64,000 bases of DNA from Bdellovibrionales bacterium (GCA_965116215.1 OZ220494.1:1563992-1627991); one strand, 5' to 3'. Shown: positions 9,567 to 55,971, counted from the first letter of the stretch. Numbers and translations are program-made. The notes: generated by a model not told the origin, from the letters alone.

Positions 9567-9898
9567 AAGGCTACAATATGAGATAGAACTGAGTTGTCTC
9601 TTGAAATACCCCTTTAAAGAATGTTGTAGAATAAATTACTTTTTCAAGAAGCCAGCCCTTTTGATCTTTTTATGGAATTATTTTATCAATGGCAAAGGAA
9701 ATTCTTGTTTTAAGTCTCATCTGTTTTTATCTATGAAAAATAAAGCATGGAATATAGGATCTATGTTTCAGGAGGCTGATGAAGAGTTCCCTCTCCCTCT
9801 TTATTCTTAAATCAGCTTATGACTGATGTTCTATAGGTTTCCTCTTTAAAAGATAATATATTCTAATATATACCATCCCTTTACCGATAAATAATATT

Positions 9899-11587
9899 AT
9901 GAGGAACTATACTTTAGCTCTTTTTGTTCTCTCCTGTATTATTATAAGTTGTTCTGACAAAGAAGATCAATCTCCACCGGAGGGAGAGTACTGTCGGTTG
10001 AGAAAAACATCTTTTCAGAATCCAGTCACTATTACTGGAAAGGCTATTTATAAACGCCGTCTTTTTGTCAATGAAGGGCTGGGTGGAGTGGATCCTAAAG
10101 ACTACCCTATTCGTCATGCAGAAGTTAGGATTTTAAAGGATGGTCAACTTGTTCAATGTACAGAAACAAATGCGCTTGGAGGGTTTTCTTTTAATGTTGA
10201 GATGAGTGAGATTTCTTATTTCGTCGAAGTTGTATCTCGAGCAAACAATTCTAAACTTAAAGTGAGCGTCTTAAATACACCAAGTGCTAATAAATATTAT
10301 GCTATCAATAAAGTATTTATTCCAGATGAAGATAAAAATATTGGCACTTTAACGGCTTCTGCAAAAGGTGATGTTATAGGGGGTGCATTTAATATTTATG
10401 ATCAAATATTCAAAGCGAATGAATATTTAAGAGAAGCTGTAGAAGATTGTAATAATGATGATTGTATTTCATTTACTGTTGCTCCAAAGGCTAAGGTTTA
10501 TTGGAGTTTGGGTGTTAATCCCGGAGAGTATTTTGACAGTCAGAGGGGTATTAGTTTCTATCGATTTCATAAAAGGGAAATTTATATTTTAGGTGGAGTC
10601 AAGAATTTGCCGGATCAGACAGACACGGATCATTTTGATGATTCTGTTATTGTTCATGAATATGCACATTTTATTCAGGATGTTTATTCCAAAGTGGATT
10701 CCTCAGGGGGGCCACACAATGGCAATTTTATTATTGACCCCAGATTGGCATGGGCTGAAGGATTTGCAAACTTCTTTGCCTCAGCTGTTCTTGAAGATCC
10801 TGTTTATAGAGATACAAAGGGAAATATAGATGGTGTAACAAGTTATATACTCTATTTAAATCAGGAAACGAATGCTCGTCGTGATGTCCCCTATGACCCG
10901 ACTCCGGAGAATAAAGAAGATCCCACTGGTGAAGGGCTGTTTAGAGAGTTTGCTATATCTCAAGCCCTGTGGGATATCATAGATGAAAATGATGATAGTG
11001 AAACGGTTCATGGTAGTTTTCATGACCTATGGAAAATTTTTTCTGGAAGAAGATTTCGATCTGAACAATATCATTATAGGCACTTTGGTCTGTTTTTAGA
11101 GCTTTATAATACATTGCCAGGGGTAGCAGATGTGAGTTCGGTATTAAAGTATAATCAAATGGTTGCTAATAGGGATCACTACGCTTTTCGATACCGCACA
11201 GAGGGTTCATGTAGGCACGTTATGAATCCAGATCATGTAAGAAATGGTGTTGATGGCTCTATAGTCAAGCGAGATGATGGAAGTTTTAGTAAATCTAATC
11301 AGTTAGCGTCGAATGACTTTTTCTTTTATAAACATAATGGTGGAATTTTAAATATATCTTTAGAAATAAAAAGTGGAAATTCAGATCTTGATATCTATGT
11401 TTGGAAAAAGGGATATACTTTTGGGTCAATTGAGGATGTTGCAGCTTTTAGCTATGGCATCGAGAGGATTGAGAGGATTATTGATAATATACCAGCAGGA
11501 TTTTATTTACTGAATGTGAAAGCTCATAAACCTAATGGAGAAGTGACATATACTTTAAGTGTTAATGGGAGGTTTGTATGCCGATAG
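9899..11587 (+). CDS. Secreted/lipoprotein zinc metalloprotease-like protein with C-terminal pre-peptidase (PPC)-like domain
   Basis: Signal peptide with lipobox-like IISC, a CarboxypepD-reg-like segment (AEVRILKDGQLVQCTETNALGGFSF), an HExxH motif (HEYAHF), and a C-terminal DLDIYVW PPC-like block. Confidence 0.65.
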   Translation: MRNYTLALFVLSCIIISCSDKEDQSPPEGEYCRLRKTSFQNPVTITGKAIYKRRLFVNEGLGGVDPKDYPIRHAEVRILKDGQLVQCTETNALGGFSFNVEMSEISYFVEVVSRANNSKLKVSVLNTPSANKYYAINKVFIPDEDKNIGTLTASAKGDVIGGAFNIYDQIFKANEYLREAVEDCNNDDCISFTVAPKAKVYWSLGVNPGEYFDSQRGISFYRFHKREIYILGGVKNLPDQTDTDHFDDSVIVHEYAHFIQDVYSKVDSSGGPHNGNFIIDPRLAWAEGFANFFASAVLEDPVYRDTKGNIDGVTSYILYLNQETNARRDVPYDPTPENKEDPTGEGLFREFAISQALWDIIDENDDSETVHGSFHDLWKIFSGRRFRSEQYHYRHFGLFLELYNTLPGVADVSSVLKYNQMVANRDHYAFRYRTEGSCRHVMNPDHVRNGVDGSIVKRDDGSFSKSNQLASNDFFFYKHNGGILNISLEIKSGNSDLDIYVWKKGYTFGSIEDVAAFSYGIERIERIIDNIPAGFYLLNVKAHKPNGEVTYTLSVNGRFVCR

Positions 11588-16265: not shown

Positions 16266-17708
16266 CTAACCTATGCTGTCTTCTAATTTCATTTCTATAA
16301 GTTTGACGGCCTCTACTGAAAACTCAAGGGGTAGTTTTTTAAAAATATCTTTACAGAATCCATTAATCAGTAAAGAGATAGCTTTCTCTAGATCTAAACC
16401 CCTTGAGTTTAAATAAAAAAGTTGATCTTCGCTTAATTTGGAAGTGGAAGCTTCATGTTCTACCTGTGCTGTTTTATTTTTTATTTCTAAATAGGGATGA
16501 GTGTTAGAAGAGCAATTGTCTCCTACAAGCATAGAATCACATTGAGAGTAATTTCTGGCTTGGTTTGCTGAAGGTAAAATTTTAACTAGACCCCTATAGG
16601 TATTTAACGAGTCGTCGGCAAGAATGCCCTTAGATAAGATAGTACTTTTAGTGTTTTTTCCTATATGGATCATCTTTGTTCCAGTATCAGCCTGCATTTT
16701 TCCATTAGTTAAAGCGACAGAATAAAAGGCTCCCACAGAGTGATCGCCTTTTAATATACAACTGGGATATTTCCATGTGATGGCAGAGCCCGCCTCAACT
16801 TGTGTCCAAGAAATTTTTGAGTTGTCTCCTGCGCACAGACCTCTTTTTGTCACAAAGTTGTAAACTCCACCCTTGCCCTCGGAAGATCCGGTATACCAGT
16901 TTTGTACAGTAGAATATCTAATTTCTGAATTTTTGTGTGCGTATAATTCAACAATAGCAGCATGAAGCTGATGAGAATCATAACTAGGTGCCGTGCAACC
17001 CTCTAAGTAGTTCACATAACTTTCGGGTTCGGCAATAACTAGAGTTCTTTCAAACTGACCAGAGTTTTCATTGTTTATTCGAAAATATGTAGAGAGATCT
17101 AGAGGGCATCTGACCCCATTAGGTATATAACAAAATGACCCATCGCTAAACACCGCTGAATTGAGGGCCGCATAATAATTATCCGTATATGGGACCACAG
17201 ACCCTAGGTATTTTTCAATAATTTCAGGACACTCTTGTACGGCCTCTGAAAAGGAACAAAATTTAATGCCATATTTTTCTAATGTCTCTTTATGAGTTGT
17301 GCCTATGGAAACGCTATCAAATACGGCATCAATGGCCACCCCAGATAATCTTTTTTGTTCTTGAAGAGGAATTCCTAACCTCTCAAAAGTTTTTAAGAGT
17401 TTTGGATCGACATCATCTAGCGTCTTTGGGTTTTGGCTTTTTTGTTTTGGTGCCGAATAGTATTGAATGTTTTGAAAATCAATCTTTGAATAAGAGACAT
17501 CAGACCATTTTGGCTCTGGCATTTTTTTCCAAAAATCATAGGCCTTAAGACGTGTATTGAGAAGGAACGGGGGCTCTTTTTTTCTCTTTGATATTTCACG
17601 AATGATATCTTCATTTAAGCCATAGGGAAAAGTTTCTGATGGGATATCAGTAGACCACCCATATTGATATTTTCTATTCGTTAAATCTTCTACCATTTTC
17701 TGAGCCAT
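16266..17708 (-). CDS. sufB: Fe-S cluster assembly scaffold SufB
   Basis: 480 aa with typical SufB blocks ([39 protein letters not shown]). Confidence 0.95.
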
Positions 17709-18287
17709 TTCATTTGAGCTGTGTTACTTCTATGTGTGTTTATTTTTTGTTTTTCTGTTGAGTTTTTCTATCATAATTATTATCTGTTTTCACTCTGCTT
17801 TATTTGTTTTCCGATTTGTCTTTATCTTATGAAGCTATTCTTTCTTCCTTTTGTTTTTTATTCCAATCCCACTGGTTCAGGAGGGTGAATAGAGTTTTTA
17901 TACTTTCCCTTCTAAGAGGGCGTTTGGTGTCCGAAGAGGTTATGTCACATATGTTATCAAAGAACCAATTCCTATTTCGCTTCATGATTTCGTTGCGACA
18001 TAAAAGCCCCTAGTCTCTTATAGGGCAGTTTTTGTTGGGTTTTCAACCTCTTCTCTTTAAATAAGTATTTTTTATACTTATTTTAATGAATAACTCCAAT
18101 GAGGGGATAGAAAATGATGAGTTATTATAGTCTTCATAAGGAGCTACAGTGGTGTCGCTCTCTGTTATGATCGTATGTTCTTAGGGGTATCGTTGATTTC
18201 ATGTTTGGGCTTATTCCTTTTATGTGTAATGTTTCACCAGGAGATTTGGTTCTATCTCTTTGAAAGATATGATAAGATATTCATCTT

Positions 18288-25157: not shown

Positions 25158-25220
25158 AGGAAGAGTTTTTCTTAAGGCTTCCAAAATCTCAGACAACTCT
25201 GAGGTTCGCAGCTCGTCTCC
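25158..25220 (-). repeat. Dispersed repeat module, copy of the element at 40702-40765 (inverted orientation)
   Basis: The reverse complement ggagacgagctgcgaacctcagagttgtctgagattttggaagccttaagaaaaactcttcct aligns to 40702-40765 with about 8 differences in 64 nt. Confidence 0.8.
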
Positions 25221-25300
25221 GCCAGAGCCTAAAATCTGGTTGGATAGGGCTCGATATATTCAGGGATAGAACAAACTGCATTTCTGCAGATATACCCTTC

Positions 25301-25440
25301 TGTAGGAAAAAGACTTTATTATCTTCCCCTTAAAGCTCAAGCAGCTTTGAAGGGCGCAAAGCGTCTCCTCTCTATGAAGAAGATACGCATTGCGCTTCAA
25401 AAAACTCGCTTTAAGAGAAAGATAAAAATCTTTTTCCCCA
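25301..25440 (-). repeat. ~140-bp palindromic (MITE/REP-like) element, copy A
   Basis: Terminal inverted repeats GGAAAAAGACTTTATTATCTTCCCCTTAAAGC ... GCTTTAAGAGAAAGATAAAAATCTTTTTCC. The reverse complement aligns along its whole length to 40425-40557. Confidence 0.8.
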
Positions 25441-32417: not shown

Positions 32418-32494
32418 GGGCCTATAGCTTAGTTGGTTAAAGCATCCGGCTCATAACCGGAGGATCCGAGGTTCGAGTCCTCGTAGGCCTACCA
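32418..32494 (+). tRNA. tRNA with CAU anticodon (Met or lysidine-modified Ile2; acceptor stem C4/C5 and the AGGCCT-ACCA 3' end favour Ile2)
   Basis: A 77-nt cloverleaf: acceptor GGGCCTA/TAGGCCT (G1-U72), D stem GCTT/AAGC, anticodon stem TCCGG/CCGGA with loop CTCATAA, T arm CGAGG-TTCGAGT-CCTCG, and an encoded CCA. Confidence 0.9.
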
Positions 32495-37709: not shown

Positions 37710-37819
37710 TCCTATGAGCAGTTGTTTTATTTAGTGAGAACCTTGTGCTTGTGTACATAAAAATTAAATGTGTAGTGGTTTAGGTTTGATAGGGCCGTTT
37801 CTTCTCCTTCCTATTGAAC

Positions 37820-38557
37820 TTACAAAGCTTCGTCGATAATATTTTTTAACTCATCTTCAAGTTTCTTAAGATCCTTAACAAATAAAGTGTGTTTTTTACT
37901 TAAAAGTTTTCTCAAGCGAGGTCCATTCTTATATGATGATATTATCCACTTTGCACTGTCTCTAAAGAACTTGACCGTGAAATCAAAAGTTTTCTCAAAT
38001 GCTTGCTGCAGCGGTAATTCAGCTTTAAGATTTAAACCCACATCTACTAGGAATATTCCCATAGCCATTGAATAAGCCCCTATACCAACCCCCTGAGCAA
38101 AAGCAGCCGCCCCTCCCCCTACAGCAGCACCTCCAGCAATCGATGGGTTTGTGATTAACGGGATTGTGAATAACGCTAATACTAAAATGGGAACACCTAT
38201 ACTCGTTAAGTTAGTTTTTATTAAAAATTTCTTTAGTGGTTTTATACCTATTGGATGGACCAACTTTTCGCAATCTTGACCTAGATAACACTTGTAAAGA
38301 TGAACTCTTTTTAAGGGTTGGTTGGAACTAGGGGGGACTGTGTAGTAAATGGTTTCAGTCCTAATCTCAAGCCATTCCGACTGAGAGAGTGGCTCAATTC
38401 CTTTTTGATAAATCCTAGTTATTTGCCAGTGTTTATACTGCAAATTGCTAATAGGCGGATGAGTTCCTTCTTGCGTCTGTTTAGTTGTTTGGGCCAAAGA
38501 GCCTGTAGAGAGTGTTAATCCCACAGCTAGAGTGAAAATGAATTTTAAAGGGTTCAT
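37820..38557 (-). CDS. Signal-peptide / Gly-Ala-rich (glycine-zipper-like) membrane protein, paralogue 1
   Basis: 245 aa. The signal peptide MNPLKFIFTLAVGLTLSTGSLAQ is nearly identical to that of the 39288-39893 product. It has a Cys pair (YKCYLGQDCEKLV), the segment AGGAAVGGGAAAFAQGVGIGAYSMAMGIF, and a conserved C-terminal RLRKLLSKKxxLFV. Confidence 0.7.
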   Translation of the reverse strand: MNPLKFIFTLAVGLTLSTGSLAQTTKQTQEGTHPPISNLQYKHWQITRIYQKGIEPLSQSEWLEIRTETIYYTVPPSSNQPLKRVHLYKCYLGQDCEKLVHPIGIKPLKKFLIKTNLTSIGVPILVLALFTIPLITNPSIAGGAAVGGGAAAFAQGVGIGAYSMAMGIFLVDVGLNLKAELPLQQAFEKTFDFTVKFFRDSAKWIISSYKNGPRLRKLLSKKHTLFVKDLKKLEDELKNIIDEAL

Positions 38558-38609
38558 AAAAATTCCTCCTGTTACAGGTTAGTCTTATATATATGCCCTA
38601 TGTTTAAGG

Positions 38610-38625
38610 AGCAAGTGCTGTGCTA
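38610..38625 (-). promoter_or_regulatory. Degenerate sigma-54-type promoter (TAGCACAGCACTTGCT; GG->AG at -24)
   Basis: Positional homologue of the consensus promoter at 39946-39961. The same -12 TTGCT is present but the -24 element reads TAGCAC. Confidence 0.45.
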
Positions 38626-38708
38626 GGTTATAGAGTTTGGTTTTTATTTGAAAAAAAAGGGGATTGTTTTTAAAAGGAGCCAACTTCTTGTTTAAAACAA
38701 AACAATGA

Positions 38709-38728
38709 GCAAACTTTATACAGTTTGC
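38709..38728. promoter_or_regulatory. Perfect 20-bp palindrome GCAAACT-TTATAC-AGTTTGC (candidate activator binding site)
   Basis: The 7-bp arms are exactly complementary. It lies 84 bp upstream of the -24 element of paralogue 1 and directly next to the (AAAAC)2 tract. Confidence 0.4.
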
Positions 38729-38856
38729 CAAGTTCTTTTACATTTTTTCATCATTTCAAAGAGTCTGTCTTTAGTTGTCAGGCTTTTAGATTTTATATGT
38801 CACAAATCCCTATATCAGCTCTTTAGAGCCAAGAGTTTTAAGATTTTGCCAGACAA

Positions 38857-39040
38857 GGGGAGGAAAGGGTTTTTGTCTTTGTCTTAAAGCGAGTTTTCCA
38901 AAGCGCAGGGGCGTATCTTCAAGGAGATACAGTTTATTTTCAACTTGAGTATATGAGCTTTAGTCTGGAGCGGAAAAGGATTTTTATCTTTCTTTTAAAG
39001 GGAGTTTTCCAAAGTATAGGGGTGTATTTGTAATTGAGAT
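38857..39040 (+). repeat. Two tandem direct half-copies of the palindromic-element left arm (copy B)
   Basis: ggaaagggtttttgtctttgtcttaaagcgagttttccaaagcgcaggggcgtatcttc and ggaaaaggatttttatctttcttttaaagggagttttccaaagtataggggtgtatttg. Both resemble 40430-40490. Confidence 0.7.
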
Positions 39041-39164
39041 AGCCACATTTTTGAAGGATTTTAAGTGAGAAGTAGAACATATCTGTGACTGTGAAGTTTC
39101 ATAACGCTTAAATCATGTCACTCTGTTTGCGCTTTTTCTTTTGGTAAAAGATCTTAATAAATAG

Positions 39165-39219
39165 TTATAAAAAACCGCTGACAGACACTCTTTGTGTTTT
39201 TGAGAGTCTTCAGCGGTTT
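39165..39219 (-). terminator. Rho-independent terminator of the 39288-39893 gene
   Basis: Inverted repeat AAACCGCTGA(cagacactc...gagagtct)TCAGCGGTTT, followed on the minus strand by TTTTTTATA. Confidence 0.75.
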
Positions 39220-39287
39220 GAAAGTCGTGTTTCAATGAGAGGTTTTGAGTTTTTTGCTCAAACCTTAATTCCCATTAGTGAGAAAAT

Positions 39288-39893
39288 TTATCGTACGTAG
39301 TTTCTGGGCTCCTCTCTTTTCAAAATTATCTTTTTAATAAGATATTCTAAGTTCTGCTCAAGCTGCTCAATATTGCGAACAAATAAGACATCCTTTTTAC
39401 TTAAAAGTTTTCTCAAACGAGAGCCTTCTGTTAAATTTCTAGTTAGATTATGTCCTCCTTTCTTCATTGTTGTTGCTCCTCCTATTAATGAAACTGCACC
39501 CGTGGCTCCTGCTGCTAACGTTGTTGATGGCACTAGGACGACTGCACCCACCATCACTCCTGCCCCGAAGAGCAAAGCTCCGACTCCGAATACGCCAGCT
39601 TTCAAGTTCTCCTGTTTTAACGTGTTTCTTAACTCATTTAAGGTCACCACTTCATCAACCAAGGGTTCACAACTCTCATTGTTATGACGCTCATCTCTAG
39701 TGCATGTATAGACCACAATGGCTGTGAGTTCTTCATTATTTACCTGTTCAGATGCTTTTCGGACCTCAATCCATTTGAGAAAAGAGGGGTCAGCATTTTT
39801 TTCTTTTATTGTGGTGGTTTTTTGAGCCAAAGAGCTGATAGAGAGTGTTAATCCCACAGCTAGAGTGAAAATGAATTTTAAATAGTGATTCAT
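39288..39893 (-). CDS. Signal-peptide / Gly-Ala-rich (glycine-zipper-like) membrane protein, paralogue 2
   Basis: 201 aa. It has signal peptide MNHYLKFIFTLAVGLTLSISSLAQ, a Cys pair (YTCTRDERHNNESCEPLV), the segment GVFGVGALLFGAGVMVGAVV...AAGATGAVSLIGGA, and C-terminal RLRKLLSKKDVLFV. A strong AGGAGG lies upstream of the ATG. Confidence 0.7.
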   Translation of the reverse strand: MNHYLKFIFTLAVGLTLSISSLAQKTTTIKEKNADPSFLKWIEVRKASEQVNNEELTAIVVYTCTRDERHNNESCEPLVDEVVTLNELRNTLKQENLKAGVFGVGALLFGAGVMVGAVVLVPSTTLAAGATGAVSLIGGATTMKKGGHNLTRNLTEGSRLRKLLSKKDVLFVRNIEQLEQNLEYLIKKIILKREEPRNYVR

Positions 39894-39945
39894 AAAAAGT
39901 TCCTCCTGTTATAGGTTAGTCCTATTGTATGTTCTATGTTTAAGG

Positions 39946-39961
39946 AGCAAGTGTTGTGCCA
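39946..39961 (-). promoter_or_regulatory. Consensus sigma-54 (RpoN) promoter TGGCAC-AACAC-TTGCT
   Basis: The minus-strand sequence TGGCACAACACTTGCT matches TGGCAC-N5-TTGCW at every specified position. Its -12 GC lies about 54 nt upstream of the ATG at 39893. Confidence 0.8.
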
Positions 39962-40034
39962 GGTTATAGAAATTGATTTTTTATTTGAAGAAAGGAAGAT
40001 TGTTTTTGCTCTTAAAAGGAGCTAACCTTTTGTT

Positions 40035-40269
40035 AAAACAAAACAAAACAAAACAAAACAAAACAAAACAAAACAAAACAAAACAAAACAAAACAAAACA
40101 AAACAAAACAAAACAAAACAAAACAAAACAAAACAAAACAAAACAAAACAAAACAAAACAAAACAAAACAAAACAAAACAAAACAAAACAAAACAAAACA
40201 AAACAAAACAAAACAAAACAAAACAAAACAAAACAAAACAAAACAAAACAAAACAAAACAAAACAAAAC
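40035..40269. repeat. Perfect pentanucleotide microsatellite (AAAAC)47, read as (GTTTT)47 on the gene strand
   Basis: 235 bp with no interruption, counted directly and consistent with the KQNKT-periodic ORF in the track. The homologous position at 38694-38703 has 2 units. Confidence 0.98.
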
Positions 40270-40274
40270 AATGA

Positions 40275-40294
40275 GCAAACTTTATACAGCTTGC
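40275..40294. promoter_or_regulatory. 20-bp near-palindrome GCAAACT-TTATAC-AGCTTGC (homologue of 38709-38728, one arm mismatch)
   Basis: Located immediately distal to the microsatellite, 314 bp upstream of the sigma-54 -24 element. Confidence 0.35.
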
Positions 40295-40424
40295 CAAATT
40301 GTTTTACAGTTTTCCATCATTTCAAAGAGTCTGCCTTTAATGGTCAGGCGTTTAGATTTTATATGTCACAAATCCCTATATCAGCTCTTTAGAGCCAAGA
40401 GTTTTTAGCTTTTACCAGACAATA

Positions 40425-40557
40425 GGGGAGGAAAGGATTTTGATCTTTCTATTAAAGCGAGTTTTTCAAAGCGCAGGGCGTATTTCGAAGAAAGACGAGC
40501 CTGCGGCCTTTGAAGCTGTTTGAGCTTGAAGGGGAAGATAAAAATCCTTTTCCTACA
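40425..40557 (+). repeat. ~135-bp palindromic (MITE/REP-like) element, copy C
   Basis: Arms GGAAAGGATTTTGATCTTTCTATTAAAGC ... GCTTGAAGGGGAAGATAAAAATCCTTTTCC. It aligns end to end with the reverse complement of 25301-25440. Confidence 0.8.
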
Positions 40558-40701
40558 GTGACTCATGCGTGAGAAAATCGCTTGTTCTATGCCCAATCAA
40601 ATCAAGCACTATTCAGTCAAGGCTTTTAAACTTTACCAAAGATAGCTTGTTTTATTCTAATGATATCAAGTTTTATCTAACTTCTATTTTTAGGTTTTTG
40701 T

Positions 40702-40765
40702 GGAGACGAGCTGCGGACCTCAGAGTTATTTGAGCTTTTGGAAGGTTTGAGAAAAAACTCTTCCT
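40702..40765 (+). repeat. Dispersed repeat module (related to the right half of the palindromic element), copy D
   Basis: ggagacgagctgcggacctcagagttatttgagcttttggaaggtttgagaaaaaactcttcct is about 87% identical to the reverse complement of 25158-25220. Confidence 0.8.
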
Positions 40766-40981
40766 AGTTATCCATCTTAACAAAGACCATAAAATCTCTG
40801 ATCGGATAATAAACTATCTATACCTTATAAAGAACTAGAGTCAGTTACACTCTATAGCAACCATAACTTAAACTGTGATGAACGAAGATAAGGGCTTTTC
40901 GAAGGGACTCTAATATAGTGATATTTTATACCTTGTTTCTTAAGAGAGTGAAAGATATAGAGGCTAATCGCTCTGGCATTG

Positions 40982-41941
40982 TTATATTTTACTTCGCTCC
41001 TTAAGACTTAAAGGATGGTGTTTTTCTAAGGTGGTGCGTAGAGAATCAAAATCTAAGTGCGTGTACTTTTCTGTTGTTTTCAATGAAGAGTGTCCAAGCA
41101 GATCCTGTATGGTACGTAGATCTGCTCCTCCACGCAGAAGATGGGTGGCGTAGCTATGCCTTAGGGCATGAGGAGAGAGGGGCCGCAAAAGTCCTGCTTG
41201 AGTGCCACAGGATCTGATAAGGGTATAGGCCTGTCGTTCAGAGAGTTTGGGGTTTAAAAGATATCCTGTTTTTTTATTAGAGGTTTTCAATTCTTCAGTG
41301 AGTATGGAAGGCAGACTAATATAGCGTTCTTTAGATCCCTTTCCTAATATGCGAAGTTTGGATTTCTCTAATATGACGTCTTTCCACTGTGAGTGACAGG
41401 CTTCGGAAACTCTTAGTCCACCGCCATAGAGAAGTAGAAAGAGCCGTCGTTTTCTAATCAAAATGTCCGACTTGGGCTGATCTTTAAACGCTTTTTTAAA
41501 ATAGTTCAAAACAGCTAACACTTCATCCAGGGAGAGGTATCGTGGGAGTTTTTCATCAACCTTTGGGAGAGTGATGGTGGTCGAGAGATCATGAACTAAA
41601 TGTCCTTCTTCAAACAAAAACCGCAAAAAACTTTTAAGGGTTGAAAATTTTCTCTGGCGTGTGGAAATAGCTAAATCTGACCAAATTTTCTTCCCCACAT
41701 CGATGAGCAGTTGACAGTTTAGATCTAAATTTTCCAATTTTTGGGACCTTTTATTTTTTTCAATATAATCGGCTAGTTGTAAAAAATCGGAAGAATAGGC
41801 CCGAAGAGTCTCAGGACTAAAGGACTTTAAATTCTCTAATGATTCCAACCAAATATCAAAATACTTGGACAGGAAAGGTTTTGGGGCTTTGTCAGAATTT
41901 CTCACTAAAATTTCCAAGATAATGCATTTTTTTACTTGCAT
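40982..41941 (-). CDS. Tyrosine site-specific recombinase, XerC/XerD family
   Basis: Catalytic signature GGGLRVSEA...HALRHSYATHLL...LLGHSSLKTTEKYTH, plus an N-terminal SAM-like domain (TLRAYSSDFLQLADYI). Confidence 0.88.
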   Translation of the reverse strand: MQVKKCIILEILVRNSDKAPKPFLSKYFDIWLESLENLKSFSPETLRAYSSDFLQLADYIEKNKRSQKLENLDLNCQLLIDVGKKIWSDLAISTRQRKFSTLKSFLRFLFEEGHLVHDLSTTITLPKVDEKLPRYLSLDEVLAVLNYFKKAFKDQPKSDILIRKRRLFLLLYGGGLRVSEACHSQWKDVILEKSKLRILGKGSKERYISLPSILTEELKTSNKKTGYLLNPKLSERQAYTLIRSCGTQAGLLRPLSPHALRHSYATHLLRGGADLRTIQDLLGHSSLKTTEKYTHLDFDSLRTTLEKHHPLSLKERSKI

Positions 41942-42080
41942 TTATTATATTCCTCCAGTAGTTTTATGCAACGTTTCAAAATGATGCATATTGTTATTTT
42001 ATGGGGGGAGGGATATAAGGACAGCCTACGGGGTGGGTAGGTTAAAAATATAAACCATCAATGAAAGATAGGCGGTACGT

Positions 42081-43157
42081 ATGTCAGAACGTGAAAGTTT
42101 TATACTCCCATCCAATAATCAGAGTTCCACATTTAGTCAAAAGGGGCAGGTCCGCAATAAAAATAAGGTGAATATCATCTATAAGTCTGAGGTGATTGAT
42201 CAGCTTTTGAAGATGATTGATCGTGTGGCCCAAAGCGATGCCAGCGTTCTCATTTTAGGAGAGTCGGGAACAGGTAAAGAACTTATAGCTAAGGCTCTTC
42301 ATGAGAAGAGCACACGAAAGTATAAACCTTTTGTGCCTATTAATTGTGGTGCTTTAAGGGAGTCGCTTTTAGAGAGTGAACTTTTTGGTCATGAAAGAGG
42401 TGCCTTTACAGGGGCCTATATGCGAAAAACAGGTTTAGCTGAAGTCGCTAATGGTGGAACATTATTTTTGGATGAAATAGGCGAACTCACTCCGGGTATT
42501 CAGGCTAAACTTTTGCGTTTTATTCAAGAGGGCGAGATTTATAGAGTGGGAGGAAAAGATCCTATCAAGGTGGATATTCGCTTGGTGAGTGCAACAAATA
42601 AAGATTTAGAATCAGAAGTTGTGCGAGGAATATTTAGGGAAGATCTTTTCTATAGAATTAATACTATTACTGCACAAGTTCCTGCTCTCAGGCGTCGAAA
42701 AGAAGATATTCCTTTACTTATCCAGCATTTCTTAACTTCAGGTTCTTATAGGTATCTCAATAGAGGACATCAGGTGAGCCCTGAAGCTATGGAGATTTTG
42801 CAGAAATATGATTGGCCGGGAAATATTCGTGAATTGCAAAACATTTGTGAACGCACACAAATATTGACAGAAGGTCACACTATTATGCCTGGAGACTTGC
42901 CTGATAGTATTAGACATCCGGATCAAAAGACTGTCATTGATGATTATGATCCGACTCTGACTCTTCATGAGCTAGAGAGACGTTATATCCTTAAGGCTTT
43001 AAGTTATTTTGAGGGTAATAAAACACGAGCGGCTCATGCTCTCGGTATTACGATCAAAACACTTTATAATAAGCTCCATGAATATGGTGAATTTGAAAAC
43101 TATGCTATTCATTCAAAACCCAAATCTTCCTCTATAAAGAAAACAGCATCAAATTAA
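42081..43157 (+). CDS. Sigma-54-dependent transcriptional activator lacking a receiver or sensor domain (AAA+ core + Fis-type HTH only)
   Basis: The AAA+ core begins about 35 aa from the N-terminus (GESGTGKELIAKALH; the sigma-54 contact loop ESELFGHERGAFTGA; WPGNIRELQN). The C-terminal HTH is NKTRAAHALGITIKTLYNKL. Confidence 0.88.
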   Translation: MSERESFILPSNNQSSTFSQKGQVRNKNKVNIIYKSEVIDQLLKMIDRVAQSDASVLILGESGTGKELIAKALHEKSTRKYKPFVPINCGALRESLLESELFGHERGAFTGAYMRKTGLAEVANGGTLFLDEIGELTPGIQAKLLRFIQEGEIYRVGGKDPIKVDIRLVSATNKDLESEVVRGIFREDLFYRINTITAQVPALRRRKEDIPLLIQHFLTSGSYRYLNRGHQVSPEAMEILQKYDWPGNIRELQNICERTQILTEGHTIMPGDLPDSIRHPDQKTVIDDYDPTLTLHELERRYILKALSYFEGNKTRAAHALGITIKTLYNKLHEYGEFENYAIHSKPKSSSIKKTASN

Positions 43158-43179
43158 GTCTCGTTTTGCAATAATAGGA

Positions 43180-44616
43180 ATGATTATGGGCTTATTATTC
43201 AGGGTAAGGGTTTTCTTACTTTTCATTGTTTGTTTTTCTTTTTCCTTATTATATGGGGCCGATGAAAAGGATTATAGAAATCTACGTCCATCTGTTGGGA
43301 TTGTTCAGTCCATTAAGGGTTATGGGACTGGTTTTTTTATAACAGAAAATTTATTTGTCACTGCCTACCATAATATTCAAGCTTCAGATAATGCGAGTAA
43401 TGAGCGATTGGGAAGAGATCCGTTGCGTGTCTATACTCTGGGGAAAAAGGATTATGGAAGAGTTCTAGTTGTTGATCCTCAAAATGATTTGGCGATTATT
43501 AAGATGCAAAGAAATGATTATAAGCCACTCAGTATAGGAAGTGATACAGATATTATTCGGGGTAAGGAAACTTTTACTATTGGTTATCCCCCCGATATTG
43601 CTTTGATCAATAGAGGAGAAAATGAAGCAGTTATAAGAGCTGTTGTGGCTCAGGGCTTTATTGGGATGAAGATGGGGAATGAAATCTTTGGTATTACAGC
43701 TTTTGCTTCAAAAGGGAGTAGTGGCTCCCCTGTTTTTTCAGAGGATTTGAAAGTCGTTGGGGTAGTTGTATTAATTACTCCAAAATCAATTTCAGGCTAT
43801 CAGACTTTTGTTACGCCGATCCATAAATTAAAGACTCTTATTGATAGAAATAAAGACCTTTTAGAAAGAGAGGGTGGAATGGGTTTTGGTCATATCTCTT
43901 CTGAGCCGTTGAAGAGGCGTGCTTTTGATGCCGATGTCAAAACAGCAGAGGATATGTTTATTTTGGGTTTAATATATAAAGAGGGTTTGAGACATAGACG
44001 GCCTAACTTTCAGAAAGCTCATTATTGGCATGAACGTGCAGCGAAGAGTGGATATAGAGATGCTGCTTTTTCCGTGGCCCAAATGTATTATACGGGCAAA
44101 GGGGTGAAAAAAGATTTTCAAAAGGCGTTTTACTGGTTTCAGGTGGCCGCAACTCATGGACATAGGGAGTCGCAATTTCATGTTGCACTTATGCACTATC
44201 GAGGGGAGGGAACAGCTCAGAACTTTTCAAAGGCCTTTGAAGGTTTTAAGAGCCTTGCAGAACAGAGGAAGTATAGAGGGGCATCAGCTCAGGTGGCGTT
44301 AATGTATTATGCGGGCAAAGGGGTAAAAAAAGATTTTCAAAAGGCATTTTACTGGTTTCAGGTGGCTGCAACCCATGGACATAGGGACTCTCAGTATAAT
44401 GTTGCACTTATGCACTATCGAGGGGAGGGAACAGCTCAGAACTTTTCAAAGGCCTTTGAAGGTTTTAAGAGCCTTGCAGAAAAGGGACATAAAATAGCGC
44501 AACATGATCTGTCTGTAATGTATGCTAGAGGAGAGGGAGTTTTAAAAAATCTTAAAAAAGCAACATATTGGTGGAAGAAGAGCAAAGGGGAAGAAGGTTC
44601 ACAGTGTTTTTATTAA
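43180..44616 (+). CDS. Secreted trypsin-like (S1) serine protease domain fused to C-terminal Sel1/SLR repeats
   Basis: Signal peptide. The catalytic triad context is VTAYHN, NDLAIIK and GSSGSPVF. There are at least 5 Sel1-type repeats (A..MY..G.GV.KD..KA..W...AA..G). The start lies 22 nt after the activator gene. Confidence 0.8.
   Translation: MIMGLLFRVRVFLLFIVCFSFSLLYGADEKDYRNLRPSVGIVQSIKGYGTGFFITENLFVTAYHNIQASDNASNERLGRDPLRVYTLGKKDYGRVLVVDPQNDLAIIKMQRNDYKPLSIGSDTDIIRGKETFTIGYPPDIALINRGENEAVIRAVVAQGFIGMKMGNEIFGITAFASKGSSGSPVFSEDLKVVGVVVLITPKSISGYQTFVTPIHKLKTLIDRNKDLLEREGGMGFGHISSEPLKRRAFDADVKTAEDMFILGLIYKEGLRHRRPNFQKAHYWHERAAKSGYRDAAFSVAQMYYTGKGVKKDFQKAFYWFQVAATHGHRESQFHVALMHYRGEGTAQNFSKAFEGFKSLAEQRKYRGASAQVALMYYAGKGVKKDFQKAFYWFQVAATHGHRDSQYNVALMHYRGEGTAQNFSKAFEGFKSLAEKGHKIAQHDLSVMYARGEGVLKNLKKATYWWKKSKGEEGSQCFY
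44083..44487 (+). repeat. Tandem 219-bp (73-aa, two Sel1 units) near-identical duplication inside the protease-Sel1 gene
   Basis: cgggcaaaggggt(g/a)aaaaaagattttcaaaaggc... recurs at 44093 and 44312. About 175 bp align with roughly 13 substitutions and no indels. Confidence 0.85.
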
Positions 44617-46719: not shown

Positions 46720-48135
46720 CTATTCATTGGCTGCTTCATCTCTTAAATCATCATCTGCTGAACCCAGTCCATACTTATCAACTCTGTATCTCATGGATCG
46801 AAATGTAATATTTAAAAGCTTAGCAGCCTTTTTTTTGACTCCCGAGCTTTTGTGGATCGCTTTAATCAATAACTCTTTTTCAATTTGTCCAATGATCTTT
46901 TCTAGATCAATTCCCTCATTTGTAATTTCAATTTCATGACTAGAGGCTATTTTTCGTCCAGATGATGTATTGACAAAAGGGGGTAGAGACTCAGGTAATA
47001 TCACAGAGCCACCCTCAAGAGCCACTGTCCTTTCAATAATATTTTCTAATTCACGGACATTTCCCGGATATTGATAAGACTTTAATGTACTCATGGCTTC
47101 ATCAGAGATGCCGCTAATACTCTTATTCAATCGCTCATTGTATTTTTTTAAAAAATGATGAGCTAAAGTAGGGATATCTACAGATCGATTTCTCAACGGA
47201 GGTGTTTTAATTAAAATCACATTCAATCTATAATAAAGATCTTCTCTAAATTGCCCTGAGCGAACCATTTCCTCTAAGTTTCTATTTGTAGCAGCTATAA
47301 TCCTCACATTTATTTTAATATCTTCTGTTGCTCCTATTCGGCGAATAGTTCTTTCTTGAATGGCTCTGAGCAGTTTCACTTGAATATTCAGTGGAAGCTC
47401 TCCAACTTCATCGAGAAAGAGTGTGCCGCTGTTAGCAACTTCAAAGAGACCTAACTTATCGGAAACTGCACCCGTGAAAGCTCCTTTTTTATGACCAAAC
47501 ATCTCTGACTCTATAAGATTTTCAGGAATAGCCCCACAGTTAACAGTTACAAAGGGGTTTTCTTTTAAGGGACCACTGTAATGAATAGCCTTGGCTACCA
47601 TTTCTTTGCCTGTTCCACTTTCTCCAATAATTAATACATTTGTGGGAGACTGAGAAACACGTTCAATGAGATCATAAATTTTATGCATTTCATCTGAATT
47701 ACCTACTAAATTTTTGAAGCTGTATTCTTTATTTAACTCCTTCTTTAAATTTCTGTTTTCAATTTCTAGATTTTTACTTCGGAGCGCATGTTTAATATTA
47801 ATTCTGACTTCATCAATTTTAAATGGTTTTGTGATATAGTCATAGGCTCCCATTTTCATGATTTCCACGGCGGACTCTGTAGTTCCAAATGCCGTAATGA
47901 TTATAAATAGCGTGTCAGGACAATTATTTTTTACGTATTCTAAGACTTCAGTTCCCGTTAGGTTAGGCATTTGCAAATCTGATATGATCAGATCAAAGGC
48001 TCTCTTTTTTATCATATCTATTGCCACTTGACCATCTTCAGCGAGGGTGACATCATAGCCTTCTTTTTTGAGCATGATATCTAAAAATTCTCTTATGGAT
48101 TCCTCATCATCAATAACAAGAATTCGTGGCTTCAC
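46720..48135 (-). CDS. pilR: Sigma-54-dependent response regulator, PilR-like (REC + AAA+ + HTH)
   Basis: Receiver domain (ILVIDDE...DLIISDLQMP), AAA+ core (GESGTGKEMVAKAIH, GAFTGA) and a Fis-type HTH. It lies directly downstream of a PilS-like kinase in the pil cluster. Confidence 0.85.
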   Translation of the reverse strand: MKPRILVIDDEESIREFLDIMLKKEGYDVTLAEDGQVAIDMIKKRAFDLIISDLQMPNLTGTEVLEYVKNNCPDTLFIIITAFGTTESAVEIMKMGAYDYITKPFKIDEVRINIKHALRSKNLEIENRNLKKELNKEYSFKNLVGNSDEMHKIYDLIERVSQSPTNVLIIGESGTGKEMVAKAIHYSGPLKENPFVTVNCGAIPENLIESEMFGHKKGAFTGAVSDKLGLFEVANSGTLFLDEVGELPLNIQVKLLRAIQERTIRRIGATEDIKINVRIIAATNRNLEEMVRSGQFREDLYYRLNVILIKTPPLRNRSVDIPTLAHHFLKKYNERLNKSISGISDEAMSTLKSYQYPGNVRELENIIERTVALEGGSVILPESLPPFVNTSSGRKIASSHEIEITNEGIDLEKIIGQIEKELLIKAIHKSSGVKKKAAKLLNITFRSMRYRVDKYGLGSADDDLRDEAANE

Positions 48136-51039: not shown

Positions 51040-52116
51040 TTAGAAACCAGCCTTTTTGATAAGACGGTCTAGTTCTTCTGGGTCAGGACTATGTTTAAAG
51101 GCTTCTTTAAGCTCTACTTTTCTCTTTAGAATCAAGTTGAGTAGAGATTGATTCATTGTTTGCATTCCTGTTTTGGCTTGTCCGACTTGCATGTTGCTAT
51201 ACACTTGATGCAATTTATCCTCTCTAATTAGATTTCGTATGGCCGGTGTCGGAACGAGCACTTCATAGGCCAGTTCAAGTCCTCCACTTTTTCCAGGTAA
51301 AAGTTGCTGAGAGATAATACCAACTAATATAAAGCTCATTTGTACTCGGACTCTATTTTGTTGCTCTGATGGGAAAACAGTAACAAGTCGACTTACCGTC
51401 TGAACAGCACTATTTGTATGTAGTGTTGTAAGGACAAGGTGACCTGTTTCTGCTAAGCGTAGGGCTTGCTCAATAGTTTCCAAGTCTCTGAGTTCTCCAA
51501 TGAGGCAGTAATTCGGATCTTGTCTTAAGAGGTGTTTCGTGGAATTTTGATAAGACCAGGTGTCAGGCCCTACTTCTCTTTGAGAGACAATGCTCTGTTT
51601 GTGGTGGTGAATATATTCTATAGGGTCTTCGATGGTAATGATATGACTTCTATGTTCTGCGTTGACCTTATCTATTAGAGATGCGAGTGTTGTCGATTTT
51701 CCTGACCCTGTTGGCCCTGTTACTAATATTAATCCATTGGGTGCATTTGTAAAATTTGCGACGGAAGAAGAAAGCCCTAATTGTTCAAAGTTAGGAATTT
51801 TATAGGGAACTCTACGAAAGGCACCTGACACCGCCCCTTTTTGATAGAATAGATTTCCTCTAAATCGTGCGGTCTGTTTCCATCCAAAACTGAAATCTAG
51901 CTCTTTTGTCTCTTCAAATCTTGCTTTTTGTTTATCTGTTAAAACAGAATAACAAAGACGTTTTGTATCTTCGCTTGTTAGCTTAGGGGCTTTTATTCTT
52001 AAGATCTGCCCCCCTATACGTACAATAGGTGCAGAACCTGTGACAATATGTAGATCTGTTGCATGCTCTTTATCAATAACAACTTTTAATATCTGTTGTA
52101 ATGTGAGGTTGATCAT
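51040..52116 (-). CDS. pilT: Twitching-motility retraction ATPase PilT
   Basis: Walker A GPTGSGKST, HIITIEDPIEY, RQDPNYCLIGELRD, and a His box (TGHLVLTTLHTNSA). Confidence 0.92.
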   Translation of the reverse strand: MINLTLQQILKVVIDKEHATDLHIVTGSAPIVRIGGQILRIKAPKLTSEDTKRLCYSVLTDKQKARFEETKELDFSFGWKQTARFRGNLFYQKGAVSGAFRRVPYKIPNFEQLGLSSSVANFTNAPNGLILVTGPTGSGKSTTLASLIDKVNAEHRSHIITIEDPIEYIHHHKQSIVSQREVGPDTWSYQNSTKHLLRQDPNYCLIGELRDLETIEQALRLAETGHLVLTTLHTNSAVQTVSRLVTVFPSEQQNRVRVQMSFILVGIISQQLLPGKSGGLELAYEVLVPTPAIRNLIREDKLHQVYSNMQVGQAKTGMQTMNQSLLNLILKRKVELKEAFKHSPDPEELDRLIKKAGF

Positions 52117-53849
52117 TTTAAGTCCTTAGTTGAGCTATTGATGACCTCACTTATTGTAATTTCGCCTTCTTTTAATTTTTTTAGAGCTGATTTTCTAAGT
52201 GTTTTCATTCCTGATTTGAGAGCACATCTTTTTAATTCCATGGGACTTACTCTTTGAAATACTAACTTTTTGAGTTTATCTGTGAATGTCATAACTTCAT
52301 AAATAGCCATTCTACCCTTAAAGCCCGTTCCATTACATTGATGACATCCTGTCCCTTTCATCACTTGAAATGTTCCAATTTCTTCTTTTGGTACTTCTAG
52401 ATCTATTAATACTTGAGGGTCCACTGAGATTGGGGTTTTACAGGAGTTACAAATTTTTCTCACAAGTCTTTGGGCCACAATAAGATTTATTGTCGATGTT
52501 ACAAGAAAAGGTTCTATACCCATATTTAATAATCTATTTACAGTTGAGGGTGCATCGTTTGTATGGAGAGTGCTCACTACAAGGTGACCTGTTAAGGCGG
52601 CCTTAAATGCAACTTCAGCCGTTTCCAGGTCGCGAATTTCACCCACCATTAGAATATCTGGATCTTGCCGTAGAAAGCTCCTTAATGCAGACGCAAAATT
52701 AAGGTCAATAGCAGAGTTCATTTGAACCTGATTAATGCCTTCTAGGTTGAATTCGACAGGATCTTCTGCGGTTGAAAGGTTCACATTGGGTTTATTAAGT
52801 TCTGCTAATGCAGAATAAATCGTTGTTGTTTTTCCTGACCCTGTGGGTCCTGTTATCAATACCATTCCATAAGGTTGATATATCCCATCTTGAAACGTAT
52901 CGAGTTGTTCTTGTGTAAATCCTAGACGAGTCATGTCTAATTGAAGAGTTGACTTATCTAATAGACGCATAACAACTTTTTCTCCAAATAACGTTGGGAG
53001 AACGCTGACACGAAAATCAATTTCCTGATTGTCTTTTAAAGTTATTTTTAATCGGCCGTCTTGAGGTCGTCGTCTTTCTGCAATATCCAACTTGCTCATA
53101 ACTTTTAAACGGCTAGTGACCGCACTGGCGATTTCGGAGCTGGGTTGGATTTTTTCATGTAATTGTCCATCAACACGAAACCGTATGCGGAATTTTTTTT
53201 CATAGGGCTCGATGTGAATATCTGATGCCTTGAGTTTAATGGCTTCACTTAACATGAGGTTGACAAACTTTATAATAGGCGGACTATTCTCTGATTTTTT
53301 TGTATCTATAGATGTAGATGTAGATGTAGATGTAGATGTAGATGTAGATGTAGATGTAGATGACATTTTTTCGACAAAAGTGTCTTTTTCTACTTCTGTT
53401 AATATCTCTTCATATCTTACTTCTGTTTGATAGTATCTTTCAATGGCACTTGTGATTTGAGCTTCTACAGAGAGAGCGATTTCAATTTTACAATGAGTGA
53501 GGAATGATAAATCATCTCGAACAGCTACATTAGATGGGTCAGCCATTGCTACAACAAGTGTATTAGAAGCTTTTGAAATGGGAATGAGTTTATTTTTTTC
53601 GCAGAAGTGGCGAGGGATAAGTTTGATAACCTCTGGGTCGATCTCAAAAGTTGATAGATTGATGGATGGAACAGAATATTGCTCAGACATAAATTCAATG
53701 AGCTGTTCTTCATTGACGTACCCTAGCTTTATAAGAGTTTCACCAAGACGCCCACCCATTGCCTTTTGTTCTTTGAGTGCTTGTTCTAATTGATGAATAT
53801 TAATAAAATTTTTGCGAACTAAGATTTCCCCAATATTTTTTGCACCCAT
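52113..53849 (-). CDS. pilB: Type IV pilus assembly ATPase PilB (GspE family) with an internal (Ser-Thr)8 linker
   Basis: N-terminal T2SSE_N/MshEN-like domain, Walker A GPTGSGKTT, LRQDPDILMVGEIRD, and a tetracysteine motif (CNSC...CHQCNGTG). Confidence 0.92.
   Translation of the reverse strand: MGAKNIGEILVRKNFINIHQLEQALKEQKAMGGRLGETLIKLGYVNEEQLIEFMSEQYSVPSINLSTFEIDPEVIKLIPRHFCEKNKLIPISKASNTLVVAMADPSNVAVRDDLSFLTHCKIEIALSVEAQITSAIERYYQTEVRYEEILTEVEKDTFVEKMSSTSTSTSTSTSTSTSTSIDTKKSENSPPIIKFVNLMLSEAIKLKASDIHIEPYEKKFRIRFRVDGQLHEKIQPSSEIASAVTSRLKVMSKLDIAERRRPQDGRLKITLKDNQEIDFRVSVLPTLFGEKVVMRLLDKSTLQLDMTRLGFTQEQLDTFQDGIYQPYGMVLITGPTGSGKTTTIYSALAELNKPNVNLSTAEDPVEFNLEGINQVQMNSAIDLNFASALRSFLRQDPDILMVGEIRDLETAEVAFKAALTGHLVVSTLHTNDAPSTVNRLLNMGIEPFLVTSTINLIVAQRLVRKICNSCKTPISVDPQVLIDLEVPKEEIGTFQVMKGTGCHQCNGTGFKGRMAIYEVMTFTDKLKKLVFQRVSPMELKRCALKSGMKTLRKSALKKLKEGEITISEVINSSTKDLK
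53311..53362. repeat. Hexanucleotide repeat (GATGTA)8, equal to (TCTACA)n on the coding strand and encoding (Ser-Thr)8 in PilB
   Basis: Eight perfect units counted directly. The repeat is in frame. Confidence 0.95.
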
Positions 53850-53870: not shown

Positions 53871-53886
53871 AGCCACTTTTGTGCCG
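53871..53886 (-). promoter_or_regulatory. Sigma-54-like promoter candidate upstream of pilB (CGGCAC-AAAAG-TGGCT)
   Basis: GG and GC are correctly spaced (GG-N10-GC), with 9 of 11 matches to TGGCAC-N5-TTGCT. It lies very close to the ATG, which implies a leader of only about 12 nt. Confidence 0.3.
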
Positions 53887-55858: not shown

Positions 55859-55971
55859 TGTATGATCCTCTATTGAAAAATATGTTTTTATAATTAATAG
55901 AAAAGTCTATAAATGGGAGTGTCTATAAAAATCAATATTTTTTCTTTGATTTAAGGCTTCCGTCGTGAGAA

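Follow-up and report, generated by a model that had tools for sequence, protein, structure and literature searches.

A 47-Unit AAAAC Repeat Upstream of a Predicted Sigma-54 Promoter in a Bdellovibrionales Bacterium: A Plausible Promoter-Repeat Contingency Locus Beside Conserved Chromosomal Genes

Introduction

Repeat tracts in promoters are an established idea, as are multigene families whose 5' ends are conserved. In Neisseria meningitidis, the number of TAAA repeats at nadA gives periodic high and low expression through altered contacts (PMC6113495). In Haemophilus influenzae, more units in the promoter heptanucleotide repeat of hmw1A and hmw2A result in less expression (PMC8262952). The Vpma genes of Mycoplasma agalactiae use one shared promoter and are rearranged by Xer1 through inversions at sites in their 5' regions (PMC2268961). 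Here, we describe a locus that resembles these systems in part. It is located in a 64,000-nucleotide (nt) stretch of a Bdellovibrionales bacterium, the whole of which was analysed and is called the window; all positions refer to it. In the block under study, 37820-44616, a gene for an exported protein (gene B) is preceded by a predicted sigma-54 promoter and, further upstream, by a pure tract of 47 AAAAC units. To our knowledge, nearly all known promoter-repeat contingency loci come from host-adapted pathogens and involve sigma-70 promoters.

An earlier reading of this DNA (the sequence-only reading) had combined six elements of the block into one envelope module on an accessory-looking island: duplicated genes for exported glycine-zipper proteins, a consensus -24/-12 promoter, a hyper-expanded microsatellite, palindromic repeats resembling miniature inverted-repeat transposable elements (MITEs), a Xer-family recombinase, and an orphan sigma-54 activator with a secreted protease-Sel1 protein. 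All six are present at their coordinates (Table 1), yet they do not constitute a single accessory module. Two unrelated segments are juxtaposed: a variable one (37.7-41.0 kb) and conserved chromosomal DNA (41.0-44.6 kb). The variable part is restricted to 37.7-41.0 kb because the Xer-like, activator and protease-Sel1 genes are conserved chromosomal neighbours. Five real open reading frames (ORFs) were retained in the block, namely the two minus-strand exported-protein genes, the recombinase, the sigma-54 activator and protease-Sel1. Our overall reading is that of juxtaposed segments in which gene B would be a sigma-54 unit with the AAAAC tract as a heritable expression dial, next to its conserved neighbours; we consider the chances for and against it to be about evenly balanced.

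Promoter and Upstream DNA of Gene B

Genes A and B encode paralogues (BLASTP E 1e-17, 29% identity) of a family here called gz, both with a signal peptide and a Gly/Ala-rich core. The gene B promoter, TGGCACAACACTTGCT, is the sole exact match to TGGCAC-N5-TTGCW in 64 kb, for a chance expectation of 0.01. Its -12 element and the downstream ATG (39893) are 53 nt apart. Counted from the GC of this element, the predicted start site is at ~39935, leaving a 42-nt leader with an AGGAGG ribosome-binding site. The gene ends in a strong intrinsic terminator (39174-39222) and is thus a monocistronic unit. Gene B is very probably sigma-54-dependent, judging from these signals, and promoter, leader, ORF and terminator would together form a self-contained unit. 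As a sigma-54 promoter unit, it would need an enhancer-binding ATPase to fire. Two genes for bacterial enhancer-binding proteins (bEBPs) are found in the window, within 7 kb, one in the block and one for a PilR-type regulator (46720..48135); rpoN itself lies outside the window, and its existence is implied by these two genes.

At the homologous position before gene A, the element TAGCACAGCACTTGCT carries one mismatch, in the -24 GG. Gene A has kept the short tract, but with this AG it would probably be weak or silent from its own promoter. In another genome, that of a different Bdellovibrionales species (locus L001), a gz member only 26-27% identical to gene B bears TGGCATCTTTCTTGCT (TGGCAT-N5-TTGCT). 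This site also ends 53 nt before the ATG and is the best one in the 20-kb locus. The promoter comparison covered genes A and B, two of at least eight paralogues on the source contig, and the members at L001, L002, L003, L004 and L130. Sigma-54 control appears, from these sites, to be in part a property of the family.

Alignment and sliding-window comparison of the two copies showed that ~370 nt of upstream DNA and the first ~75 nt of coding sequence, corresponding to the signal peptide, are 80-97% identical. The central coding sequence is essentially unalignable (15-50% identity), and the last ~80 nt are back at 63-73%. The repeat is the single large difference between the upstream DNA of copy A (2 units) and copy B (47 units). 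In copy B, it begins 73 bp upstream of the -24 element, spans ~-100 to -336, and sits within the most conserved non-coding DNA of the locus. Tandem repeats of such length and purity are slippage-prone. The tract is a long, pure, short-unit repeat in the regulatory DNA of an exported-protein gene, which is a contingency-locus trait.

The conserved upstream block also contains a palindrome. In copy A, it is a perfect 20-bp GCAAACT-N6-AGTTTGC at 38709-38728, centred at ~-120 from the predicted start. The copy B counterpart, GCAAACT-N6-AGCTTGC at 40275-40294, has one mismatch and is centred at ~-350. Only one unrelated site with up to two mismatches occurs elsewhere in the window. The copy B palindrome is a candidate activator site or, alternatively, may represent a terminator-like hairpin.

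Table 1. Features of the gz locus and its surroundings in the 64,000-nt window.
Feature	Position	Strand	Description
gz gene A	37820..38557	-	245 residues; signal peptide, two conserved Cys, Gly/Ala-rich hydrophobic core, C-terminal LRKLLSKK..LFV
Degenerate -24/-12 element before gene A, TAGCACAGCACTTGCT	38610..38625	-	TAGCAC; -24 GG to AG
Proto-microsatellite (AAAAC)2 before gene A, AAAACAAAAC	38694..38703	+	Site homologous to the 47-unit tract
Conserved upstream block, copy A	38706..38856	-	92-93% identical to copy B
Hairpin element, partial copies	38856-38925 and 38972-39077	+	Found by repeat comparison
Intrinsic terminator of gene B	39174..39222	-	Stem-loop of -23.9 kcal/mol, then U6
gz gene B	39288..39893	-	201 residues; signal peptide, Gly/Ala-rich hydrophobic core
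Predicted sigma-54 promoter of gene B, consensus, TGGCACAACACTTGCT	39946..39961	-	TGGCAC-N5-TTGC; GG and GC 10 bp apart
(AAAAC)47.4 microsatellite	40035..40271	+	237 bp, 100% pure (Tandem Repeats Finder); (GTTTT)n on the gene strand
Conserved upstream block, copy B	40272..40422	-	Counterpart of 38706-38856
Hairpin element, full copy	40424..40769	+	MITE/REP-like; 137-nt hairpin, fold z = -3.8
Xer-like tyrosine recombinase	40982..41941	-	Phage_integrase PF00589 8.7e-33; SAM_1 PF02899 1.6e-07
Sigma-54 activator (bEBP)	42081..43157	+	AAA+ PF00158 4.3e-69 with GAFTGA; HTH_8 PF02954 6.5e-13
Protease-Sel1	43180..44616	+	Signal peptide, Trypsin_2, five Sel1 repeats; starts 22 nt past the bEBP stop
Hairpin element, second full copy	25158..25439	-	Outside the block, between convergent genes; z = -9.0

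The AAAAC Tract as a Possible Expression Dial

The 47-unit tract would have arisen by expansion of a two-unit seed within the conserved upstream DNA. Its growth would push the distal 218 nt, with the 20-bp palindrome found at -120 in gene A, out to ~-350. If this distal conserved block holds the activator site, each 5-bp unit gained or lost by slippage would shift both the distance and the helical face (by about half a turn) between the distal DNA and the promoter. The tract could thereby act as a heritable and reversible dial on gene B expression. A wider version, in which hypermutable (AAAAC)n tracts in sigma-54 upstream regions would switch or grade gz members across a Bdellovibrionota sub-lineage via enhancer-promoter geometry, is rather unlikely.

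Several points weigh against such a dial. bEBPs can act over several hundred bp, and the 237 extra bp may matter little. No enhancer site was identified: the palindrome is absent from L001 and from the upstream region of the bEBP gene, and the copy beside the tract scores as a weak terminator-like hairpin. No recognisable -24/-12 element precedes the distant gz members at L002, L003, L004 and L130. The AAAAC tract of L001, described below, is located 125 nt before a lipoprotein gene and not beside a sigma-54 promoter. Finally, no gz gene, good -24/-12 site or AAAAC tract is present near the bEBP in the related loci L005-L009, so that the bEBP and the gz genes are linked by proximity alone.

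It is also possible, although we lean against it, that the expansion is neutral. Slippage at the T-rich (GTTTT)2 tail of a terminator-like hairpin would then have lengthened the tract with no effect on gene B, either because the activator is distance-independent or because its site lies within the 73 bp proximal to the tract. The sequence around the tract agrees with this in several respects. Directly adjoining the seed (AAAAC)2 is a hairpin (-10 to -11 kcal/mol) with CAUUGUUUUG behind it, and the two copies were each scored as terminator-like. A proximal palindrome, AAAAGG-N6-CCTTTT, sits between the tract and the gene B promoter, and the variable segment as a whole is unusually slack, with 59% non-coding DNA. 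Moreover, tracts of (AAAAC)>=12 are common between genes on many unrelated metagenome contigs: a scan with (AAAAC)12 matched at least 120 of them, and among the matches listed, none was related to this lineage and none carried a gz gene. However, 100% purity over 47 units implies ongoing turnover and not an old relic. The non-coding block in which the tract lies is also the most conserved one at the locus, and AAAAC recurs near the rare gz family in a second genome.

This second tract, a perfect (AAAAC)29.6 at 12618-12765 of L001, is found between two gz members (9740..10618 and 16930..17934), 2 kb downstream of the former and 4 kb upstream of the latter. The window and L001 tracts arose independently, as their flanks are not homologous. 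The recurrence, with two cases, could indicate a link to the gene neighbourhood or a lineage prone to expansion of this motif.

The orientation of the L001 tract bears on another explanation, in which the tract would serve as an UP-element-like A-tract of a plus-strand sigma-70 promoter, driving a non-coding transcript into the hairpin repeat. The L001 tract has the same orientation to its downstream gene and ends 35 nt before the TGnTATACT -10 element of the lipoprotein gene. In the window, TTGCCA-18-CATCAT occurs on the plus strand at both 40291..40320 and 38725..38754. Such promoter-like matches are nevertheless as frequent as in shuffled sequence (22 against 21.6 expected), no Rfam match was found, and no downstream ORF is under purifying selection, the 45-codon candidate showing 8 changes that mostly alter the amino acid. 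A sigma-70 role of the tract is quite improbable.

This small ORF, at the right edge of the tract, was rejected as non-coding on account of these A/B differences, and the ORFs running through the repeat (39973..40392 and others) were discarded as repeat artefacts. At one intergenic site shared by two 99.4% identical metagenome contigs (L037 6520-6609 and L042 6538-6607), (GTTTT)n differs in length and interruption. As the organism is unrelated, low-GC and gene-dense, this shows instability of the motif in general and not at gene B. A metagenome scan with the conserved gz signal-peptide DNA gave no match, and the literature on bacterial AAAAC microsatellites yielded only eukaryotic marker papers.

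The gz Protein Family

A word-indexed search of 5.8 billion proteins returned five gz relatives, all encoded on one 1,824,586-bp contig, the source contig. An exhaustive profile search of 1.84 billion proteins gave 16 representatives. With a profile of 19 sequences, a second indexed search brought the number on the source contig to at least eight (P0001-P0007, P0022). Scanning a genome collection with the family alignment identified two loci only (L001 and L002), in one Bdellovibrionales metagenome-assembled genome (MAG). Further members are encoded on the Logan contigs L003, L004 and P0014, and on the ENA/NCBI contig L130; the loci read were L001-L004 and L130, without the P0014 contig. The positions of gz genes are variable between relatives.

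The 19 sequences have a common architecture: a signal peptide (with a lipobox in some), an N-terminal domain, a core and a C-terminal motif. The N-terminal domain follows the pattern [LI][ED][IV]R...Y/F-x-C...C-x-P-L-V...L...N. The core is a Gly/Ala-rich hydrophobic stretch of very variable length, and the C-terminal motif reads G-x-x-LRKLLS-x-K-[DE]-x-L. The core is also where close paralogues diverge: gene B and P0003 are 98% identical over residues 1-97, 42% over residues 98-150, and 93% over residues 151-190.

The AlphaFold (AF2) model has a mean predicted local distance difference test (pLDDT) score of 60. A four-strand sheet with a helix (residues 26-110) and a C-terminal strand-helix (169-194) are its confident parts, and the Gly-rich middle is below 50 and disordered. 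The proteins are predicted to be Sec-exported, with a small beta-rich domain containing a conserved Cys pair. The Gly/Ala segment probably inserts in a membrane as a hairpin.

No Pfam family matched the 19 members at the gathering level, and no NCBIfam model matched gz proteins. PHROG gave nothing below 1e-3, the best hit in a PDB sequence profile search had E >= 0.92, and Foldseek of the model against the PDB gave nothing at E <= 0.001. By these comparisons, gz belongs to no known glycine-zipper, holin or phage family. It is, as far as sequences indicate, a new and very rare family in a Bdellovibrionales sub-lineage, with a cassette-like, hypervariable membrane segment. With at least eight paralogues that keep their 5' region but are hypervariable in the core, the family shows the hallmarks of variable surface proteins.

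Two members, L002 9911-10763 and L130 10001-10779, are split by a frameshift, with the C-terminal motif in the other frame. They are either pseudogenes or the result of long-read homopolymer errors.

Conserved Neighbours and the Island Question

The recombinase is named Xer-like because XerC and XerD are its best NCBIfam models but remain below their cutoffs (205.4 against 335.15 bits and 203.2 against 329.6 bits, respectively). Its catalytic and SAM-like domains agree with the assignment to the Xer family made from the sequence alone, and the domains expected for the activator and for a secreted protease-Sel1 protein were likewise seen. In the bEBP, no N-terminal sensory or receiver domain was matched, and the AAA+ domain starts at residue 32.

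Relatives of this bEBP form at least 120 clusters (90% identity), at 70-90% identity over 88-100% of the length. The relatives listed have the same domain content and 336-414 residues, most of them 345-360, and the named sources are Bdellovibrionales, Bdellovibrionota or Bdellovibrionaceae MAG proteins. The bEBP is, on this evidence, a highly conserved core gene of Bdellovibrionota. The divergent pair formed by the Xer-like gene (minus strand) and the bEBP gene (plus strand), at 40982-43157 in the window, recurs in three other Bdellovibrionota lineages: L005 (3500-5649), L006/L007 (8867-11041 in L006) and L008/L009 (8893-11050 in L008). The bEBP is 90%, 77% and 75% identical to that of the window in these lineages, and the Xer-like protein 85% in L005 and 42% in L006/L007. 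In L005, the closest relative, Sel1/protease-Sel1 (32-37%), VTT (62%) and GT4 (70%) genes follow in the same order as in the window.

An alignment of the Xer-bEBP intergenic DNA across the four lineages, examined for a shared operator, revealed conservation only of the ribosome-binding-site and start context, and the conserved sequence does not recur upstream of gz genes. For a phylum-wide core regulator whose neighbourhood elsewhere is without gz genes, proximity is weak evidence for a role at gene B. The adjacent bEBP and the PilR-type regulator are equal candidates as the activator of gene B.

Three Sel1 or protease-Sel1 genes are found at 5960-10518 of L005 where the window has one. From these three copies, and from 32-37% identity against 90% for the adjacent bEBP, protease-Sel1 is expanding and diverging fast. 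Within the window gene, a 219-nt tandem duplication (44037-44474, 86-94% identity) doubles a Sel1-repeat pair. In L006 and L008, flagellin genes are located 2-3 kb from the Xer/bEBP pair. On its 3' side, the Xer-like gene is bordered by different DNA in each of the four lineages: the gz genes in the window (37710-40981), an exported protein without assigned family and an ankyrin protein in L005 (1-3500), directly a HAD hydrolase in L006 (7541-8870), and, over ~7 kb, ORFs that match no Pfam family in L008 (1936-8881). This side of the Xer-like gene may be a recurrent insertion or rearrangement point.

The recombinase, 1.1 kb from the locus, raises the question of a Vpma/Xer1-like switch, as in Mycoplasma agalactiae (PMC2268961). 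The Xer-like enzyme would recombine the gz 5' regions, swapping the gene behind the intact promoter. The paralogues do share ~370 nt of 80-97% identical 5' sequence, with one promoter intact and the other impaired. The 5' blocks are, however, direct repeats with no inverted copy in the window, and the recombinase accompanies the bEBP as a conserved partner also where no gz genes adjoin it. We give this switch very little credence.

It is also highly improbable that the whole of 37.8-44.6 kb was acquired horizontally as a single accessory island, with the gz genes driven by an activator of its own. The elements lie close together and include a recombinase gene. Against this, the Xer-bEBP synteny is maintained in the three other lineages, with the bEBP 70-90% conserved. 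GC content and GC at third codon positions (GC3) of all block genes are within ~1 standard deviation of the window gene mean. The window repeat search found no att-like border repeats of the block, and no tRNA gene adjoins it, the sole one in the window being at 32418, 5 kb outside. Hence, neither composition, border repeats, a tRNA gene nor a loss of synteny across the whole block marks a genomic island.

Of the accessory island of the sequence-only reading, variability between relatives holds for 37.7-41.0 kb (no gz genes are found left of the Xer-like gene in L005, L006 or L008), but not for 41.0-44.6 kb. That reading had itself named conservation and synteny of the block as core genome as the finding that would contradict it. 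This is what is seen in the right half, and not at 37.7-41.0 kb. Its suggestion of a contingency locus for a surface or envelope factor keeps its basis in the exported gz protein, the predicted sigma-54 promoter and the slippage-prone tract, but has to be separated from the frame of a single island.

Dispersed Hairpin Repeats and Flanking DNA

The 55-nt repeats noticed in the block belong to an element of ~340 nt, of which the first ~137 nt form a long imperfect hairpin. The MITE-like palindromic repeats of the sequence-only reading are thus real, but constitute a dispersed family and not a feature specific to the locus, with a second full copy outside the block (Table 1) and a related piece in the other genome (L001 6550-6635). 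Like repetitive extragenic palindromic (REP) sequences, bacterial interspersed mosaic elements (BIMEs) and MITEs, the element has a long imperfect hairpin and several dispersed intergenic copies, one of them between convergent genes. It differs from them in matching no Rfam family, with two sub-threshold, snoRNA-like chance matches only.

The flanks contain, as had been read, leucine catabolism on the left (a methylcrotonyl-CoA carboxylase-type cluster) and a pil cluster on the right (pilSR-pilC-pilT-pilB), both seen by domain content. The supposed contrast in repeat density between block and flanks did not hold: the hairpin element is dispersed, and repeat richness is not limited to the block because further tandem repeats occur in the flank at 53-57 kb. 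A perfect hexanucleotide repeat, (TAGATG)9 at 53309-53362, lies inside the ORF of a PilB-like ATPase (52113..53849, minus strand), where it is translated in frame as an (ST)9 linker joining the MshEN and T2SSE domains. At 55118-57156, two neighbouring minus-strand ORFs with no Pfam match are made of long tandem repeats. The first encodes a Lys/Arg-rich protein of 246 residues (84 nt x 4.5) that has an acidic tail, and the second a 394-residue exported protein with 102-nt x 3.2 repeats rich in Asn, Pro and Tyr. Just upstream of the PilB-like start at 53849, CGGCACAAAAGTGGCT (53871-53886, minus strand) is a -24/-12-like sequence with two mismatches; the PilR-type regulator may act here on a second sigma-54 promoter.

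Comparison with Known Systems and Significance

If the tract tunes the promoter, the locus would offer a simple natural system for the roles of enhancer distance and helical phase in sigma-54 activation. Phase variation would then operate via enhancer-promoter geometry, and not through a sigma-70 spacer or a reading frame, and a contingency locus would exist in an environmental lineage, outside host-adapted pathogens. Such tuning would also point to stochastic surface variation in this lineage, whose cultured members attack other bacteria. Two results hold regardless of the role of the tract. The gz proteins appear to be a new and very rare family, and the receiver-less bEBP, with its Xer-like partner gene, is a phylum regulator that is strongly conserved and apparently unstudied.

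With its AAA+ (GAFTGA) domain and C-terminal helix-turn-helix only, this bEBP resembles PspF and HrpRS. By what is known of PspF, such an architecture implies control in trans or by expression level. The window protein differs from PspF in its score (269.6 against the PspF equivalog cutoff of 443.55 bits), in having no pspA-like partner, and in its membership of an orthologue group that spans Bdellovibrionota and is paired with a Xer-like gene.

Literature searches returned no case in which a repeat tract is joined to the upstream region of a sigma-54 promoter, nor any from Bdellovibrio-like organisms. The Vpma genes are comparable as a variable, exported multigene family with conserved 5' regions and signal peptides, adjoining a Xer-type recombinase. 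In contrast to them, the gz copies are direct, each with its own -24/-12-like element, and the recombinase is a housekeeping-type neighbour of the bEBP. The hmw1A and hmw2A genes share with gene B a long tract in the promoter region of a surface (adhesin) gene. In hmw, the tract is placed between two sigma-70 promoters and becomes part of the transcribed 5' untranslated region, whereas the gene B tract is upstream of the predicted start, barring an unrecognised distal promoter. The likeness to nadA, a surface-protein gene, consists in a short-unit repeat located upstream of the core promoter, between it and the upstream regulatory sequences. The nadA promoter is of the sigma-70 type, with NadR and IHF and ~5-14 units; gene B is of the sigma-54 class, with a 5-bp unit and 47 units. 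Regulator sites and expression are known for nadA, whereas gene B is known from its sequence alone. The gene B locus is a plausible promoter-repeat contingency locus, and what it adds to the described systems is the sigma-54 setting, the 47-unit pentanucleotide tract, the lineage and the protein family.

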